A DNA stretch of 64,000 bases, taken from positions 101,867 through 165,866 of the forward strand of contig CAVUQU010000002.1 in assembly GCA_963743755.1 (NCBI GenBank), given 5' to 3'. Source of the DNA: an uncultured bacterium (GTDB lineage Bacteria > Acidobacteriota > Aminicenantia > Aminicenantales > Saccharicenantaceae). This document shows, piece after piece, positions 20,287 through 61,438 of the stretch (its first letter is position 1; each line of letters opens with the position of its first letter). The position numbers and the translations under genes are program-made. The notes under the pieces are model-generated. The model was not told the origin of the DNA. It did no database searches and saw only the letters and a program-made list of their open reading frames with translations.

Positions 20287-20553
20287 TCAGGCCGGGTTTT
20301 CAGACCCCTCTTCGCCGTCGGGCGAAGGCATCGCCGTGATGAGGTCGCGGGCCTTCGCGACGTTGGCCGCTTGGACGAAGATCTTGAATTCGGCCATGCC
20401 GTCGACGGTGAGCGGGTAGACGAAAGGCGCGGTCCGGCCGCGGACGATGGAGGCGATGCCGTGGCTCTCCAGAAAGTTCTTGATCAGGTCCGCTTCGAAC
20501 GGGCCCTGGACGCACGCGATCTCGACGAGGTCGGCGTTGTCGGTTTCCGGCAT
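20287..20553 (-). CDS. small DUF2007-like (putative signal-transducing) protein
   Basis: Intact 88-aa [42 protein letters not shown].... Family call is from memory and weak. Confidence 0.4.
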
Positions 20554-20981
20554 GGGGACCTTCCTTTCCAGTCGCGGAGATAATCGTCGAGGATGCGGCG
20601 ATGATCGAAAGCGAGCGGTCGGCTCCGGTCGCGGGGATCGGCCACGACGGCCGTCCGGGCGTCGTCGGCGCCCCGGGGAACGCCTTCGGCCCGGGCGACG
20701 AACACCGTCGAGATCGTATGCAGGCGCGGGTCCCGGTCCGGATCGGAGTAGGCCCGGAACTGGCCGACGAGCTCGACCGCAAGCGACGTCTCCTCGCGGG
20801 CTTCACGGACGGCGGCCGCTTCGAGCGTCTCGCCGTAGTCGACGAAACCGCCGGGCAGCGCCCAGCCGGGGGGCGGGTTCTTCCGCTCGATGAGGACGAT
20901 GCCGCGCTTCTTCCCGGCGATCCCGATCTCGATGATGATGTCGACGGTCGGGACGGGATTGCGGCAGCGGGAGCGGGCCAT
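20484..20981 (-). CDS. NUDIX hydrolase
   Basis: NUDIX box [24 protein letters not shown] within ...[25 protein letters not shown].... Start taken at the internal Met (MARSRCRN...), which lies downstream of a predicted -10. The 3' end overlaps the DUF2007 ORF by about 70 nt in another frame; this may be genuine or an indel artefact. Confidence 0.7.
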
Positions 20982-21033: not shown

Positions 21034-21034
21034 C

Positions 21035-21097
21035 GCAAGAAAATGGGGACGTTTCTGGATTTCGCCGAGAATACCAGAAACGTCCCCATTTTCTTGC
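21035..21097. repeat. palindromic element copy 1: 24-bp perfect arms GCAAGAAAATGGGGACGTTTCTGG / CCAGAAACGTCCCCATTTTCTTGC, 15-nt loop ATTTCGCCGAGAATA
   Basis: Arms are exact reverse complements. Same core as the copies at about 56460 and 60820, but with a C->T change in the left arm matched by a G->A change in the right arm. Confidence 0.8.
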
Positions 21098-21169
21098 GAT
21101 TTGGGCGCGGCAGTCCTCTTTGGATGACACCCCGCGGCGCCGTACGTTCCGCCATAAGGGGAGGGCGTT

Positions 21170-21228: not shown

Positions 21229-23199
21229 ATGAAAAACGGGGGGATCCGGCGGATCGTCTTTTGCGCTGTTATTCTGGCCGCGTCCACCGGCCTTTGGGGG
21301 GCCGATCACTACAGGGTCGTCAATGGTCCGAAGGACTTTTATTTCGGCCACATCAGCTACATCGAGCCGACGCCCGAGGGGACGGATCCCAGCGTCCTTC
21401 GCGAAGGCCGTTCCGAGCCCGAGCCGGGCATCCTCAACACGCCCATCGGCCCGGGCGATACCGTCCGGACATCGGCCGACCGGCGCTGCGAGATCCAGTT
21501 CGACACGGGGACGATCGTCCGCCTCGACGTCGCGACCGAGGTCCGGGTCGAGACCATCCTGGCCCGCAGCCTGAGCGGCCCAGACGCGCTCTCGGTCCTG
21601 ACCCTCGGAAAAGGCCGCATCTACGTCATGTACAAGGAATACGGCCGCCGGGAGATGTTCCAGGTCCTGACGGCCAACGCGGCCGTCAAGCTGAAGCACA
21701 ACTCCGTGGCCCTGGTCTCCGCGGCCGCCGACGGAACGACCGAGACTCAGGTGCGGTACGGCCGGGCCCAGGTGCTCTTCGGCCCCGATCCCAAGCTCCT
21801 CGACGACCGGGCGGTGAAGAAGGGCGAGCGCTTGATCGTTTTGAAGGACCACCAGTTCGAGCTGGCCGCGGCCATCGACGGCACGGCCTTCGAGCTGTGG
21901 AACCGGGATGTCAACGCTCATTTCGAAGACCTCCACGAAGGCCTGACCTCGCTGCCGAAGCCCCTGCAGAAGCTGCCGCCGGCCGTGTTCTATTTCGCCC
22001 AGACCTACGGCAACCGCTACGGCGAATGGCTCTGGGACGATTTCTACGGTTACGTCTGGCGCCCCTTCATCGACAACGGCTCCTATCCGTGGGGCTGGAG
22101 CCCGTATTACTACGGCCAGTGGTCCTACGCCGCCGGCCAGATGTTCTGGGTCCCCCAGGAGCCCTGGGGCTGGATCCCATACCACCTGGGCGTCTGGCAG
22201 TGGGACAAGAAACACGGTTGGTTCTGGCTGCCCGGATCGATGTTCGCCCCGGCCTGGGCGACCTGGGACTTCTACTTCGGTTACGCGGCCTGGCGGCCCT
22301 GGAGCCTCTACGACTGGATGTACGACGGCTCTTACTGGGCGTCCGGGCTGGGCTGGTCGGGAGACGGTCTTTACTACTCCCCTTACTGGGCCAGCGGTCC
22401 GAATACGGCCGGCTCGCTCGGGAGGACCGTCGTCCGCAAGAACTCCCTGAAGCAGCCGGCGCCGGCGTCCCTGCCCATTCCCGCCGAGCTCCGGGGGCTC
22501 GTCAAGAAGGTGACGACCGCCTACGAGAACGGCGATCCCCGGATACGCGGCGGAGCGGACGAGATCTCGCGCCGCCTCGTCCTCGTCGCCAAGGACGATC
22601 TCGGCTCCCGGGCGATCCACGAGAAGACGCTGACCCTGGACGCGGTCTCGAAGCGGACCGTCGCTCCGGCCGGCGAAGCCGCCGTGTCGCAGACCGTGCC
22701 GGATCCCCGCCGTGAGGCCGCCCGCACCTTCCTCGGCGTCGACGGGCCCGTGACGTCGCCGAGAAAAGTCCCGGCCCCGGAATCCGTGCGGGTCGAGGGC
22801 CGGGGCATCACCGCCTACCCGTCCGCCCCCGCCGTCCGGACCGGTTTGCCGGTCCGCCGGACGGAAGCTCCGGCGATGCGTTTCCGCGATTGGAATCCCG
22901 ACCTGCGCGTCGCCCGCGAGCTCGGCGTCCGGATCGAGTATTCGAGCGCCCGGAACGAGGTGCGCTGCCCCGAGCTAAACCTCTCTTCGAGGGACAGGGA
23001 GCGGGCGACGGGGCTTTCCCCTCACCTGACCGCGCACGGCGTAAGCTACGGCCCGGCCGTTTCGACCGGCGGTGAGTACGCCGGCGGTTCGAGCGCCTCG
23101 CCTTCTTCGCGCTCGGCCGGAGTCCGGTCCGAGGGCGTTTCCACAGCGACGCGGGGGGAAGCCAAGAGCGGCGGCGAAGGCGGGAAGATCAAAAACTGA
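21229..23199 (+). CDS. secreted FecR-domain protein with Trp/Tyr-rich central region (function unknown), intact 656 aa
   Basis: Signal peptide MKNGGIRRIVFCAVILAASTGLWGA. FecR-like segment ...GPGDTVRTSADRRCEIQFDTGTIVRLDVATEVRVE.... Then an extraordinary aromatic-rich stretch DFYGYVWRPFIDNGSYPWGWSPYYYGQWSYAAGQMFWVPQEPWGWIPYHLGVWQWDKKHGWFWLPG...WSLYDWMYDGSYWASGLGWSGDGLYYSPYWASG. RBS GAGGAG. Confidence 0.6.
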   Translation: MKNGGIRRIVFCAVILAASTGLWGADHYRVVNGPKDFYFGHISYIEPTPEGTDPSVLREGRSEPEPGILNTPIGPGDTVRTSADRRCEIQFDTGTIVRLDVATEVRVETILARSLSGPDALSVLTLGKGRIYVMYKEYGRREMFQVLTANAAVKLKHNSVALVSAAADGTTETQVRYGRAQVLFGPDPKLLDDRAVKKGERLIVLKDHQFELAAAIDGTAFELWNRDVNAHFEDLHEGLTSLPKPLQKLPPAVFYFAQTYGNRYGEWLWDDFYGYVWRPFIDNGSYPWGWSPYYYGQWSYAAGQMFWVPQEPWGWIPYHLGVWQWDKKHGWFWLPGSMFAPAWATWDFYFGYAAWRPWSLYDWMYDGSYWASGLGWSGDGLYYSPYWASGPNTAGSLGRTVVRKNSLKQPAPASLPIPAELRGLVKKVTTAYENGDPRIRGGADEISRRLVLVAKDDLGSRAIHEKTLTLDAVSKRTVAPAGEAAVSQTVPDPRREAARTFLGVDGPVTSPRKVPAPESVRVEGRGITAYPSAPAVRTGLPVRRTEAPAMRFRDWNPDLRVARELGVRIEYSSARNEVRCPELNLSSRDRERATGLSPHLTAHGVSYGPAVSTGGEYAGGSSASPSSRSAGVRSEGVSTATRGEAKSGGEGGKIKN

Positions 23200-32184: not shown

Positions 32185-32203
32185 AGGAAAATTATAGCAA
32201 GAA

Positions 32204-32295
32204 GGGGTCAAACCTAAACAAATTAACTTTCTGGGCGTCTCCGGTAGTCCCCTCTAAAGAAACCGGGAAAGGTTAATTTGTTTAGGTTTGACCCC
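32204..32295. repeat. AT-rich perfect inverted repeat: 28-bp arms GGGGTCAAACCTAAACAAATTAACTTTC / GAAAGGTTAATTTGTTTAGGTTTGACCCC separated by about 35 bp
   Basis: Arms are exact reverse complements (read by eye). Lies in the about 340-bp AT-rich divergent region between the DRG GTPase and gyrB. Confidence 0.8.
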
Positions 32296-32445
32296 CTCTC
32301 ACCCCCTCCTAACTGTGAGAAAAAAAGACCCCTTCGGACGTCTCTGTCAAAGGGCCCGCTAAACGTCCCGGTCGGGGGGTCGAGAAAGTGCCGTAAAACG
32401 TTGATATCAAACAATATTAAATTCAGCTAAAATCGCGCTTTTTTC

Positions 32446-56334: not shown

Positions 56335-56406
56335 ATGGGCCTACCAGGATTCGAACCTGGGACCAACCGGTTATGAGCCGGTGGCTCTACCGCTGAGCTA
56401 TAGGCC
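56335..56406 (-). tRNA. tRNA-Met (anticodon CAT), elongator-like; tRNA-Ile2(LAU) cannot be excluded
   Basis: Minus-strand read GGGCCTATAGCTCAGCGGTAGAGCCACCGGCTCATAACCGGTTGGTCCCAGGTTCGAATCCTGGTAGGCCCA. It has a 7-bp acceptor stem GGGCCTA/TAGGCCC, D-arm GCTC/GAGC, anticodon stem ACCGG/CCGGT with loop CTCATAA, and T-arm CCAGG-TTCGAAT-CCTGG. CCA is not encoded. G1-C71 pairs, so it is not the bacterial initiator type. Confidence 0.85.
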
Positions 56407-56416
56407 CTCGGCCCCT

Positions 56417-56459: not shown

Positions 56460-56514
56460 GCGAAATGGGGACGTTTCCGGTTTTCGCCGCGAAAACCGGA
56501 AACGTCCCCATTTC
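56460..56514. repeat. palindromic element copy 2: 24-bp perfect arms CGAAATGGGGACGTTTCCGGTTTT / AAAACCGGAAACGTCCCCATTTCG, loop CGCCGCG; ends at the rpoD stop codon
   Basis: Exact reverse-complement arms. The left edge shows a partial tandem duplication (GAAATGG atgc GAAATGGGG). Coordinates are +/-1. Confidence 0.8.
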
Positions 56515-56515
56515 G

Positions 56516-58136
<1,621 letters not shown>

Positions 58137-58197
58137 GGCGCGCACCTCTTTTCCCGTTCCCTGTTCTATGACGGCATCGCATGACGTTTTCTTCCCT

Positions 58198-59922
58198 TCA
58201 CTGGAGCGACAGGATCTGCTTGGTGACATCCTGCTTCTGGTAAAGGAGGGCCAGGAGCTCCTCCTTCTCGCCGGCCTTCTCCGACCGGGCGATATCCCGC
58301 TGGATGGATTTGAGGCGGTTCTGGAGGTGGACCCGCCGCAGGGACCTCAGGCATTCCTGGGCCTCCTCGACCGTGCCCGCCGAGGCCTTCTCGAACAGGG
58401 CCGTGGCCAGCTGGGACAACAGGGCGGGCGGGACCTTGCCCTGGAGGCTGGGGAAGCTCCAGTCCTCGTCGTTCTTGAAGCCGGCCATGATGTGCTGGAA
58501 GACCTGCTCGCCCCGCAGGCCCTGGAAGATCTCCCCGCCGCATTCGGCGAAGATCTCGTGGGCGATCGCGCGGTCGGTCATCAGGATCTGGAAGAGGCGC
58601 TTCTCCGCCGGGCAGAAGAGGCCCGGCTCGTCCGCGGCTTTGTCCGGGCCTTTGCGGCCGACGAGGCTCCGCAGGAGCTCCTCGCCGATGCCGAGCTTCG
58701 AGCTGGCCCGCCGGAGGTATTCGCTCCGGGCGACGGTATCGGGGACCTTCTCGATCTCCCGGACGACGGCGTGGGCGACCTTGCCCTTCTCCTCGGGGAC
58801 GCTCATCCGGGCGCCGGCCGTCATAGCGTCGATGAGGAAGTCCAGCCCGCTCACGGTTTTCTTCAGCAGGGACTGATATTTGTCCCGGCCGTGCTTCTTG
58901 ATGTAGGCGTCGGGGTCGAGGCCGTCGGGAAGGACCAGGACCTCGACGTTGAGGCCCTTCTCGAAGCCGATGGGCACCGCCCGGGCCATGGCCGTGCGTC
59001 CGGCTGTGTCGCCGTCGTAATTGATGATGAGGCGCTGGGCGAAGCGCATGACCTGGCCGACCTGCCAGGCCGTCAGGGCCGTGCCCAGCGAGGCGACGAC
59101 ATTGGTGAAACCCGCCTGGTAGAGCGACGAGAAATCCGTGTATCCCTCGACCAGGATGGCCGTGCCCTCCCGGCGGACGGCGTCTTTGGTGAAGTTCAGG
59201 CCATAGAGGAGCTTCCCCTTGGAGTAGAGGGGCGTCTCCGGCGAATTGAGGTATTTCGGCTCGGCGTCGACGATCGTCCGCCCTCCGAAGCCCACGACCC
59301 GGCCGGTCAGGCTGAAGATGGGGAAGATGACCCGGCCCCGGAAACGGTCGCGGTACTCGCCGGGCCGCGACCCGGGCAGGACGAGTCCGCCCTTCTCGAG
59401 CAGCGACACCGGGACGTCCTTCGACCGGAAGGCATCGAGGAGGGCGGTCCACGCGTTCAGCGCGTAGCCGATCTTGAGCGTCTGGATGGTCTCTTCCGAG
59501 AGGCCCCGATTTTTCAGATACTCGAGGGCCTTTTTGCCCTCCTGCGTGTTGTAGAGGTTCTTCTTGAAATAGCCGACCGCGAGCTCGTTCGTCTTGAACA
59601 GCTTCTCCTCGAGCTTGAGGACTTCGGGCCGGACCCGTTGCTGGGCCGGCAGGGGGATGCGGTATTTCTCGGCCAGGCTCTTGAGCGATTCGGGGAAGGT
59701 CAGGTTCTCCCGCTCCATGAGCAGGGAGAAGACGTCGCCGCCGACGCCGCAGCCGAAACAGTGGTAGAGCTGCTTCTCCTCGTCGACGGTGAACGAGGGC
59801 GTCTTTTCGGTGTGGAACGGGCAGAGACCGACCCACTTGCGGCCGCGCCGCTTCAGGGTCGTGTACTGGGAGGCGATCTCGACTATCGACGAGGCTTGCC
59901 TGACCTGGTCAATGATCTCCAT
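58198..59922 (-). CDS. dnaG: DNA primase DnaG, intact 574 aa
   Basis: Zn-binding CPFHTEKTPSFTV..YHCFGCG; TOPRIM ...ILVEGYTDFSSLYQAGFTNVVASLGTALT...INYDGDTAG. Confidence 0.9.
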   Translation of the reverse strand: MEIIDQVRQASSIVEIASQYTTLKRRGRKWVGLCPFHTEKTPSFTVDEEKQLYHCFGCGVGGDVFSLLMERENLTFPESLKSLAEKYRIPLPAQQRVRPEVLKLEEKLFKTNELAVGYFKKNLYNTQEGKKALEYLKNRGLSEETIQTLKIGYALNAWTALLDAFRSKDVPVSLLEKGGLVLPGSRPGEYRDRFRGRVIFPIFSLTGRVVGFGGRTIVDAEPKYLNSPETPLYSKGKLLYGLNFTKDAVRREGTAILVEGYTDFSSLYQAGFTNVVASLGTALTAWQVGQVMRFAQRLIINYDGDTAGRTAMARAVPIGFEKGLNVEVLVLPDGLDPDAYIKKHGRDKYQSLLKKTVSGLDFLIDAMTAGARMSVPEEKGKVAHAVVREIEKVPDTVARSEYLRRASSKLGIGEELLRSLVGRKGPDKAADEPGLFCPAEKRLFQILMTDRAIAHEIFAECGGEIFQGLRGEQVFQHIMAGFKNDEDWSFPSLQGKVPPALLSQLATALFEKASAGTVEEAQECLRSLRRVHLQNRLKSIQRDIARSEKAGEKEELLALLYQKQDVTKQILSLQ

Positions 59923-60030: not shown

Positions 60031-60774
60031 CTAGAGATGGTTGATCTGGCTGGCCAGGAAGGCCGCCCCGAAGCCGTTGTCGATGTTGACCACGGCCACT
60101 CCGCCCGGGCAGGAGTTGAGCATGGCCAGCAGGGCGGCAAGCCCCTTGAACGAGGCCCCGTAGCCGACGCTCGTCGGCACGGCCACGACGGGGACCCGGA
60201 CGAGGCCGGCGACGACGCTCGGCAGGGCGCCCTCCATGCCGGCGACCGCGATGATCACGCGGGCCTGCCGGAGGCGGTCGTACTGCCCGAGGAGGCGGTG
60301 GAGTCCGGCGACACCGACGTCGTAGATGCGCTCGGTCGCGTTGCCCAGGACCTCCGAGGTCACGGCCGCTTCCTCGGCCACCGGGATGTCCGAGGTCCCG
60401 GCGGTCAGCACGACGACCGTGCCCCGGCCGGCCGGGGGAGGGGACTGGATCCGGCTGACCGTCCGGGCCGCCTCGTTATAGACCGCGCCGGGGAGCTTGG
60501 TCCGGATCTTGGCCCAGGCGGCGGGTTCCACCCGGGTGACGAGCAGGTTCGAGCCCTTGCCGAGGATCTCCCGGGAGATGCGGACGATCTGGTCCGGCGT
60601 CTTGCCCAGCCCGAAGACGACCTCAGGCGAACCCTTGGCGACCTCGCGGTGGTGGTCGACTTTGGCGAAATCGAGTTCGCAGTAAGGAAATCCCTCGAGG
60701 AGCTCGAGAGCCTTGGCGGGCGCGAGCTTGCCGGAGTGGACTTTCTCCAGGATCTCTTCCAGGCGCTTTTTCAC
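60031..60774 (-). CDS. PurE-like (NCAIR-mutase fold) protein with N-terminal extension, COG1691/LarB-like, intact
   Basis: C-terminal half ...VVVLTAGTSDIPVAEEAAVTSEVLG...RVIIAVAGMEGALPSVVAGLVRVPVVAVPTSVGYGASFKGLAALLAMLNSCPGGVAVVNIDNGFGAA matches the PurE fold; the about 100-aa N-terminal domain is as in LarB-family proteins. Call is memory-based. Confidence 0.55.
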   Translation of the reverse strand: MKKRLEEILEKVHSGKLAPAKALELLEGFPYCELDFAKVDHHREVAKGSPEVVFGLGKTPDQIVRISREILGKGSNLLVTRVEPAAWAKIRTKLPGAVYNEAARTVSRIQSPPPAGRGTVVVLTAGTSDIPVAEEAAVTSEVLGNATERIYDVGVAGLHRLLGQYDRLRQARVIIAVAGMEGALPSVVAGLVRVPVVAVPTSVGYGASFKGLAALLAMLNSCPGGVAVVNIDNGFGAAFLASQINHL

Positions 60775-60819
60775 CCGTCCATTTTACCACATCCGCCAAG
60801 CGACCGGACAATGGGGACG

Positions 60820-60870
60820 TTTCCGGTTTTTCGCCGCGGAAAACCGGAAACGTCCCCATTTTCCGATGTT
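60820..60870. repeat. palindromic element copy 3: 21-bp perfect arms CAATGGGGACGTTTCCGGTTTT-like / AAAACCGGAAACGTCCCCATT, loop TCGCCGCGG
   Basis: ATGGGGACGTTTCCGGTTTT at about 60821-60840 is the exact reverse complement of about 60850-60869; the A/T pair extends the arms to 21 bp. Coordinates are +/-1. Confidence 0.8.
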
Positions 60871-60878
60871 GTCAAAGG

Positions 60879-60907
60879 CGGGCAAGTCGTGTAAAATAAG
60901 CGCAATT
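60879..60907 (+). promoter_or_regulatory. candidate sigma70 promoter TTGTCA-17-TAAAAT for the TPR-glmU-ACT-OCD operon
   Basis: TTGTCAaaggcgggcaagtcgtgTAAAATaagcg begins 8 nt after the right arm of palindrome copy 3; a GTG start lies about 35 nt downstream with RBS GAGAGGAACAACC. Confidence 0.4.
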
Positions 60908-60940
60908 CAACTCCAATCGAGAGGAACAACCGTGCGCGAA

Positions 60941-61438
60941 CAACGATCGAAGAAGGACGAGTATCAGAAAGCCCTGGCGGCCTACGGCCTGGCCGTCAAG
61001 GAATTCCAAAAAGGCGAGTTCGAGAAGGCCGCCGAGTCGTTCGGCGCTTTCATCGAGAAATTCCCGGCCGAGAAGGAGATCGTCGACCGGGCCCGGACGT
61101 ACATCGCCATCGCCCGGAAGAGGCCGAAAAAAGAGATTGCGCCGCCCAAGAGCTTCGCGGAACACTACCGCGCCGGCGTGGTCAAGATCAACCAGAAGGA
61201 TTACGAAGGGGCGGTCAAGATCCTGGAGAAAGCGCTGGAGTTCAAGGAGAACGAAGGCCTCGTCTATTACCTGCTGGCCGACGCCCATAGCCTGATGGGC
61301 CAGGGCGACGCCTCGCTCGATCTGCTGAAGAAGGCCGTTCAGAAGGACAGGAACTTCTCCATCCTCGCCCAGAACGAGCCCGATTTCGAGGCGCTCTGGG
61401 ACGACAAGAAATTCAAGCTCATCACCAAGCTGGCATGA
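60941..61438 (+). CDS. TPR-repeat protein
   Basis: GTG start ([37 protein letters not shown]...); at least 3 TPR-like helix pairs (...[49 protein letters not shown]...). Its stop overlaps the glmU ATG. Confidence 0.55.

Follow-up and report, generated by a model that had tools for sequence, protein, structure and literature searches.

The three palindromic repeats in the 64-kb stretch of DNA analyzed here (the window) are probably non-autonomous elements of the REPIN or MITE kind, each made of two TIRtron terminal inverted repeats set head to head after loss of the gene. TIRtrons are genes for TIR-associated tyrosine transposases (TIRYTs) together with their terminal inverted repeats (TIRs), and some TIRs form moderately abundant families of single units, dimers, and clusters (Di Nocera, De Gregorio & Rocco 2013, PMC3733652). 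The palindromes are thus a new member of a known, little-studied kind of repeat and not a new regulatory system. They belong to a multiphylum family with dispersed whole copies, motif variants that change with the transposase lineage, and lineage-specific presence. From these sequence comparisons we infer that the palindromic repeat is probably mobile.

An initial annotation of the window had described three strong palindromes. All three are present, as judged from the window sequence and its inverted-repeat arms (Table 1), and its coordinates needed small corrections; those of copy 3 (60820-60870) were about 10 nt off. The sequence GGGGACGTTTC ... GAAACGTCCCC is common to the three copies, and the center between the arms of copy 2 is a single nucleotide. 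As had been claimed, TCGCCG is found in all three centers, all three copies are intergenic, and a paired change distinguishes the copies: T at 21056 goes with A at 21076 in copy 1, against C and G in copies 2 and 3. The A/T runs said to flank the arms are clear in copy 1 only (GAAAAT/ATTTTC), with GAAAT/ATTTC at copy 2 and ACAAT/ATTTT at copy 3.

Table 1. Palindromic elements of the window with their neighboring genes and promoters
Feature	Position	Strand	Details
Copy 1, palindromic element	21034-21098	.	Arms 21034-21063 and 21069-21098, 30 nt, 93% complementary; cores 21045-21055 (GGGGACGTTTC) and 21077-21087 (complement, GAAACGTCCCC); linker TGG/CCA
Copy 2, palindromic element	56461-56515	.	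Arms 56461-56487 and 56489-56515, 27 nt, 100% complementary; cores 56467-56477 and 56499-56509; linker CGG/CCG
Copy 3, palindromic element	60805-60865	.	Arms 60805-60834 and 60836-60865, 30 nt, 93% complementary; cores 60813-60823 and 60847-60857; linker CGG/CCG
NUDIX gene	20484-20981	-	Left neighbor of copy 1
FecR/DUF6600 gene	21229-23199	+	Right neighbor of copy 1, divergent from NUDIX gene
Promoter TTGACA N18 TACAAT	-35 at 21033-21028	-	-35 directly abutted by copy 1
tRNA-Met	56336-56407	-	Promoter TTGACG-N17-TATAAA, -35 at 56446-56441
rpoD	56516-57910	-	dnaG-rpoD operon; copy 2 starts one base past stop codon
AIRC-domain gene	60031-60774	-	Left neighbor of copy 3
TPR gene	60932-61438	+	Right neighbor of copy 3, divergent from AIRC-domain gene
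Promoter TTGTCA N17 TAAAAT	TTGTCA at 60869, TAAAAT at 60897	+	Copy 3 ends 3 nt upstream

The 17-mer AATGGGGACGTTTCYGG matches the window six times, once in each arm and with 0 mismatches, compared to 0.26 matches expected from shuffled sequences. No sites beyond these six arms were found in the window when up to 3 mismatches to AATGGGGACGTTTCYGG were allowed, and a 24-nt arm query with up to 6 substitutions recovered the same six arms and nothing else. A candidate decayed fourth copy at 32334-32370 was rejected because its 5 mismatches are at chance level (2.9 such matches expected per simulated window). The three hairpins are predicted to fold as RNA at -46 to -52 kcal/mol (z-scores relative to shuffles, -7.8 to -10.7). 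The description of a dyad-symmetric repeat family that is not CRISPR is supported.

The family extends far beyond the window. A species-level scan (one genome per species) with the pattern GGGGACGTTTC-N5-35-GAAACGTCCCC returned at least 119 loci in dozens of assemblies from several phyla, many genomes having several loci, where by our own estimate about 2 matches would be expected by chance. Among the loci listed, the hosts belong to Bacillota (mostly Clostridia), Omnitrophota, Aminicenantes, and Planctomycetota and, in a few cases, to other phyla. The copies listed follow a common design, X-GGGGACGTTTC-linker(2-3 nt)-X' ... X-linker-GAAACGTCCCC-X', in which X varies by lineage: it is GGGACAY in many Clostridia, AAAAAT or GAAAAT in Omnitrophota, Planctomycetota, and Aminicenantes, and (C)GAAAAT-like in the window copies. 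Across the family the core-to-core distance ranges from 5 to 35 nt, and additional (X-core) units often lengthen the palindrome on both sides. Half-units of the form X-core-X' are also found alone, and tandem arrays occur as well. A Lutisporaceae genome contains four copies of an identical asymmetric 49-nt element at unlinked loci, all with the same non-complementary linker (GCG versus GGG). This identity, which includes the mismatched linker, indicates that the whole palindrome is the unit that is copied.

A metagenome scan for the subtype found in the window (YGG/CCR linker) returned only eight loci, of which L132, L134, and L137 are similar to copy 1, and no transposase was found in these eight. 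Palindromes of the GGGGACGTTTC/GAAACGTCCCC type numbered 0 in IMG/VR, and blastn against PLSDB gave matches no better than chance; a phage or plasmid origin was rejected on these grounds. A full-text literature search for the 11-mer returned unrelated primers only. Some individual loci have features of their own. At L063, two 97% identical copies of a 152-nt segment containing the element (1558-1709 and 2638-2789) surround RHS-type toxin C-terminal cassettes (GPNLYVYCKNDPVN...), with a 6S RNA 86 nt downstream of the second one. At L031, an element copy is located 25 nt upstream of a tRNA. At L075 (5137-5320), a solo unit, TGGACAA-GGGGACGTTTC ... GGACGTTTC-CC-TTGTCCA, is split by ~150 nt with inverted ends GAGACTGCTGAAAA and TTTTCAGTGGCTTC. 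A 9-nt duplication of GGACGTTTC is present on the flanks of this interruption, as if a further small element had entered the core.

The initial annotation had seen no transposase, which is true within the window, where no Y1 gene was found, nor was one found in the few Aminicenantes loci examined; elsewhere, however, the motif flanks genes for Y1 tyrosine transposases in inverted orientation. A regular expression for HUH and Y motifs, applied to all loci examined to find transposase genes, identified two genes adjoining elements, in L054 (Omnitrophota) and L075 (Eubacteriales). Both gene products match PF01797 (Y1_Tnp; E values of 7.6e-15 and 6.4e-13), and their best NCBIfam match is to REP-associated tyrosine transposase at 70.6 to 70.8 bits, below the cut-off of 80. 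The L075 transposase gene has a unit on its upstream side only. A profile search returned thousands of homologs, about 225 aa long in Omnitrophota and about 251 aa in Bacillota, some of which are named RayT by their sources. HUH (NHVH) and Y (YIxxNP) motifs are present in the motif-flanked transposases.

The context of five homologs was examined (L140, L142, L144, L145, and L146), and all five have the core or a variant of it upstream and the complement downstream. In L140, a full palindrome is found 65 nt upstream and AAATA-GAAACGTCCCC lies across the stop codon. L144 (Natranaerovirga) has AGACAA-GGGGACGTTTC-TGT-TGTCTT about 50 nt upstream and GAAACGTCCC 7 nt past the stop codon, and L145 (Paramaledivibacter) has GGGACGTTTC upstream and a tandem of GAAACGTCCCC units downstream. 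The motif differs in L142 (variant GGGGACGGTTC) and L146 (variant GGGGACGGTCC), each with its own complement downstream, and these variants recur in other copies at the same loci, including a complete palindrome at 4508-4565 of L146. Two of five more distant homologs in viral contigs have the same arrangement, one with the exact core (L152) and one with GGGACAGGTTT and its complement (L153). In L140, L142, L144, L145, L146, and L152, the core lies 45 to 110 nt before the start codon and the complement lies 0 to 30 nt past the stop codon or across it. In all, seven other genomes contain a Y1 (HUH) gene with the motif or a matched variant upstream and the complement downstream.

For five of these transposases, BLASTP against reference TIRYT and RAYT sequences (PMC3733652, Additional file 5) gave E values of 1e-20 to 1e-48 against published TIRYTs, 1e-11 to 1e-16 against the divergent Acidobacteria-type TIRYT, and only 1e-3 to 1e-12 against canonical RAYTs. 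By sequence similarity, the motif-flanked transposases are of the TIRYT type and not canonical RAYTs, and it is membership in the family that would tie the window copies to a TIRYT in their own genome. A phmmer search with an IS608 TnpA query gave no match, and neither did a PDB sequence search with the transposase. Element-flanked ORFs in L063, L013, L104, and L045 were rejected as transposases because they are RHS-toxin tips or unrelated genes, and a weak tblastn match in L070 is not a transposase. The Omnitrophota TIRYT genes share a conserved 5' leader, (c)cttcttt-ACGTCTATT-nn-GTAGA-gggagg (L140, 2940-3000; L142, 2930-3000; L146, 2440-2500). The pyrimidine stretch of this leader can pair with the Shine-Dalgarno sequence, and the leader may be a translational control hairpin.

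The paired change in copy 1 had been taken as an argument for selection on the hairpin itself. Beside the fixed 11-mer, at 9 positions on the inner side and about 7 on the outer side, 64 to 94% of 130 copies pair (27 to 73% in shuffles), and nearly every one of these positions shows all four types of Watson-Crick pair. Within a genome, the 13 variable positions include on average 1.6 differences between the two arms of a single copy and 2.7 between arms of different copies. Arm pairing is widespread and kept through many different base pairs, but it is not always perfect. Because the arms are two copies of one terminal repeat and the elements are copied whole, paired differences need no selection on the hairpin. 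Template switching in quasipalindromes can also carry a change from one arm to the other. Arm pairing follows from the construction of the element and is no proof of hairpin selection. The initial annotation had named an origin as REP or MITE copies as the outcome that would refute structural selection. The element is REP/MITE-like, and at the level of the family the argument for selection on structure does not hold.

Gene context among the loci listed was tandem in 79 cases, convergent in 21, and divergent in 7. Divergent contexts, rare in the family (5 of about 105 outside the window), are those of two of the three copies within the window, which speaks somewhat against the main reading. From the core, the nearest stop codon was a median of 26.5 nt away and the nearest start codon a median of 107.5 nt, and 49% of the element sides that face a gene 3' end were within 25 nt of the stop codon (loci listed). 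Placement close to stop codons is the distribution known for REP elements, and it makes binding of a regulator at promoters an unlikely general role for the family. All-against-all clustering of the 2398 ORFs at the 119 loci listed produced housekeeping families only (ABC ATPases, response regulators, and similar proteins), and no recurrent partner gene was found beyond these.

Homologs of its RpoD assign the window to Candidatus Aminicenantes. Within the window, all three copies touch promoters, copies 1 and 3 sit between divergent promoters, and a gene 3' end precedes copy 2 only. The rpoD gene beside copy 2 is split (minus strand, 56516-58229): region 1.1 is in an ORF at 57801-58229 that is 92% identical to the N terminus of P0004, and the remaining ORF (56516-57910) encodes 464 aa, compared to 538 to 541 aa in orthologs. 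The split is due to a frameshift that is either genuine or introduced during assembly.

The orthologous spacers were compared in two relatives, L130 and L131, whose RpoD is 94% identical and whose genes follow the same order (GlmU-like, TPR, AIRC, dnaG, rpoD, tRNA-Met, CT398-like). The element was absent from both comparable spacers and from 17 to 21 kb overall in these relatives, and it was not found in the more distant relatives L120 to L129. In L130 and L131, the tRNA-Met, TPR, and AIRC promoters have kept their -35 and -10 sequences. Since these promoters are conserved without the element, they are older than the element and not part of it. On both sides of copy 3, homology with L130 and L131 returns no more than a few bases from the element (at CGG and at ATTGTCC, respectively), and the relatives' spacers are too diverged to yield clean insertion boundaries or a target site. 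By this comparison, the window copies are lineage-specific insertions and not conserved operators. Other palindromes (GGGAAATATC...GATATTTCC-like and others) occupy the rpoD/tRNA-Met and TPR/AIRC spacers of relatives (L120, 4110-4660; L130, 6960-7405), and these spacers seem to be colonized by different repeat families in each lineage. A run of about 60 C in the AIRC-gene region of L129, a 2.4-Mb Aminicenantes contig (about 7350-7430), which cuts the called gene short at 142 aa, is probably an assembly artifact.

The elements could instead be intrinsic (bidirectional) terminators that the host evolved in place, their shared sequence reflecting good terminator design. Very stable GC-rich stems with short A/T runs outside, the location of copy 2 directly after the rpoD stop codon, the crowding of the family's 3'-facing sides near stop codons, and the T runs that follow the arms of Omnitrophota and Planctomycetota copies would all fit such a role. 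We nonetheless consider this origin unlikely, because copies 1 and 3 lie between divergent genes with nothing there to terminate, clostridial copies have no T run at all, and relatives terminate rpoD without the element. A consensus terminator scan called none of the three window copies, whose T tails are only 3 to 4 long. Above all, an identical core of 11 plus 11 nt across phyla and at transposase flanks is not possible by convergence.

It is very improbable that the palindromes are operator or activator sites at which a dimeric DNA-binding regulator acts on adjacent promoters. The same promoters are kept in relatives that lack the element, the would-be targets (NUDIX, TPR/GlmU, and tRNA-Met) are unrelated, and arms of 27 to 30 nt are far longer than operators; furthermore, the spacing between cores is too variable across the family (5 to 35 nt), and among the loci listed 21 members lie between convergent genes and most are at gene 3' ends. 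These points outweigh the position of all three window copies against sigma-70-like promoters: in copies 1 and 3, CCCCATTTTC is 5 nt away from the -35, and the copy 2 palindrome ends 14 nt upstream of the -35 of the tRNA-Met promoter. ParB/Noc, CIRCE, sigma-54, and ECF sigma sites were rejected on motif order and spacing, which do not fit. We also give very little credence to a structured non-coding RNA, or an RNA element selected for its hairpin, as the identity of the repeat. An Rfam search at the gathering threshold gave no match at the elements in the window or at 18 other loci (the only match in the window was the tRNA), solo half-units occur, and the symmetric element forms the same hairpin from both strands with no preferred strand. 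The strong covariation-like pairing in 130 copies and the extreme predicted folding speak for an RNA, but such pairing is expected when the arms are copies of one DNA repeat and the element is copied whole.

We therefore favor gene-less TIR dimers, and known systems suggest how they could spread. The 11-mer is presumably conserved across phyla as the sequence read by the transposase. By analogy with IS200/IS605 and REP-RAYT systems, a TIRYT-like transposase would copy the gene-less dimers in trans. The likely substrate would be single-stranded DNA with the element folded as a hairpin, and the enzyme may recognize the small X/X' hairpin and cleave or join nearby within GGGGACGTTTC, if it acts like IS200/IS605 TnpA and Escherichia coli TnpA-REP. 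A cognate gene would be present, or would once have been present, elsewhere in the genome from which the window comes. At their current sites, the very stable hairpins could stop or stabilize transcripts and would otherwise be tolerated passengers. A terminator or insulator role, either blocking read-through or protecting mRNA 3' ends, is plausible by analogy with REPs, and copy 2 may insulate the tRNA-Met promoter from rpoD read-through. More tentatively, and with some doubt on our part, TIRYT (subclass 2.1) transposases may drive REPIN-like populations through one strict 11-nt motif, GGGGACGTTTC, in at least five phyla, which would imply repeated horizontal transfer of transposase and repeat, and some high-GC Aminicenantes copies may have been co-opted as read-through barriers directly upstream of promoters.

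A large branch of HUH tyrosine transposases that has hardly been studied thereby gains a concrete substrate open to testing, an 11-nt motif between short lineage-specific stems. REPIN-like populations also extend beyond the Proteobacteria, into uncultured phyla such as Aminicenantes and Omnitrophota, and for annotation the repeat accounts for striking palindromes that could be mistaken for operators, riboregulators, or terminators.

The closest described relatives are the TIRtrons. Many TIRs share GGGGWSAS (PMC3733652), and Quentin et al. (2018, PMC6006769), who equated TIRYTs with TnpA_Y1 subclass 2.1, gave the flanking consensus as GGGG[AT][CG]A[CG] and found no REP-like sequences near subclass 2.1 genes. 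The genes found here resemble TIRtrons in their TIRYT-like products, in GGGG-initiated inverted repeats at near-constant distance, and in a 3' repeat that overlaps or abuts the stop codon. The family repeats are likewise dispersed as singles, dimers, and clusters, three of the dimers being in the window. In contrast, the family motif is GGGGACGTTTC, whose GGGGACGT matches GGGGWSAS at 6 of 8 positions, and the window contains no TIRYT gene; neighboring clostridial units (GGGGACAC) match the consensus at 8 of 8 positions. Hosts among the Aminicenantes, Omnitrophota, and Clostridia and an exact cross-phylum 11-mer were not reported for TIRtrons.

With REPINs and REP-RAYT systems (Bertels & Rainey 2011, PMC3116915; Nunvar 2010; Ton-Hoang 2012) the family shares an inverted doublet of short palindromic units that forms one long hairpin, extragenic copies that lie mostly downstream of genes and form populations within one genome, and a single-copy cognate Y1 transposase gene flanked by the repeat. 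Unlike REPs, neither the three window copies nor the family has GTAG/GTGG at the foot of the hairpin, and the conserved part is a 13- to 15-nt "loop" between short X/X' stems and not the stem. The transposases are not canonical RAYTs (Bertels groups 2/3), as they fall below the NCBIfam cut-off and are nearer to TIRYTs by BLASTP. Furthermore, REPIN-RAYT systems are described as mostly vertically inherited, whereas this family crosses phyla.

CGTC-tagged REPs, as described in PMC3733652, have the tag followed by an 8- to 9-bp stem starting with A/T pairs, a 4- to 5-nt loop, and a CCA tail, with no associated transposase. The present family resembles them in having CGTC in its core (GAAACGTCCCC), in occurring mostly as head-to-head dimers, and in lying downstream of genes, but membership was rejected because the CGTC-stem-loop-CCA anatomy is absent in the window copies and the family. 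Intrinsic terminators, and elements of the Correia and ERIC types that serve as terminators or promoters, also form stable intergenic hairpins bordered by A/T runs and may likewise affect read-through and mRNA stability. The family differs from them in its sequence-specific core, common to several phyla and to transposase flanks, in the lack of direct target-site duplications, and in that only one of the three window copies follows a gene. A MITE of a DDE transposon was rejected because the flanks of a copy are mutual reverse complements and there are no direct target-site duplications, and the "CnGA-foot" hairpins of class 3 TnpA_Y1 have a different sequence.

Two other hairpins were noted in the course of these comparisons. 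A low-GC spacer of the window (32200-32299) contains a second, unrelated palindromic element, present there as a single copy, with 31-nt arms that are 94% complementary and 38 nt apart. Its arms contain GGGGTCAAACCTAAACAAATTAAC, and GGGGTCAA matches the TIRYT TIR consensus GGGGWSAS at 7 of 8 positions, and it may be a dimer of another TIR family. In subclass 2.6 (PMC6006769, Additional file 2), an "atypical" REP-like hairpin near a Bacteroidetes Y1 gene of Pedobacter saltans, CTGT-CCGTAGAG-TTAAGTGAAACGT-CTCTACGG, combines a stem of 8 bp with a loop of 13 nt in which GAAACGT is found. The hairpin resembles an X-core-X' unit, which may be a coincidence.
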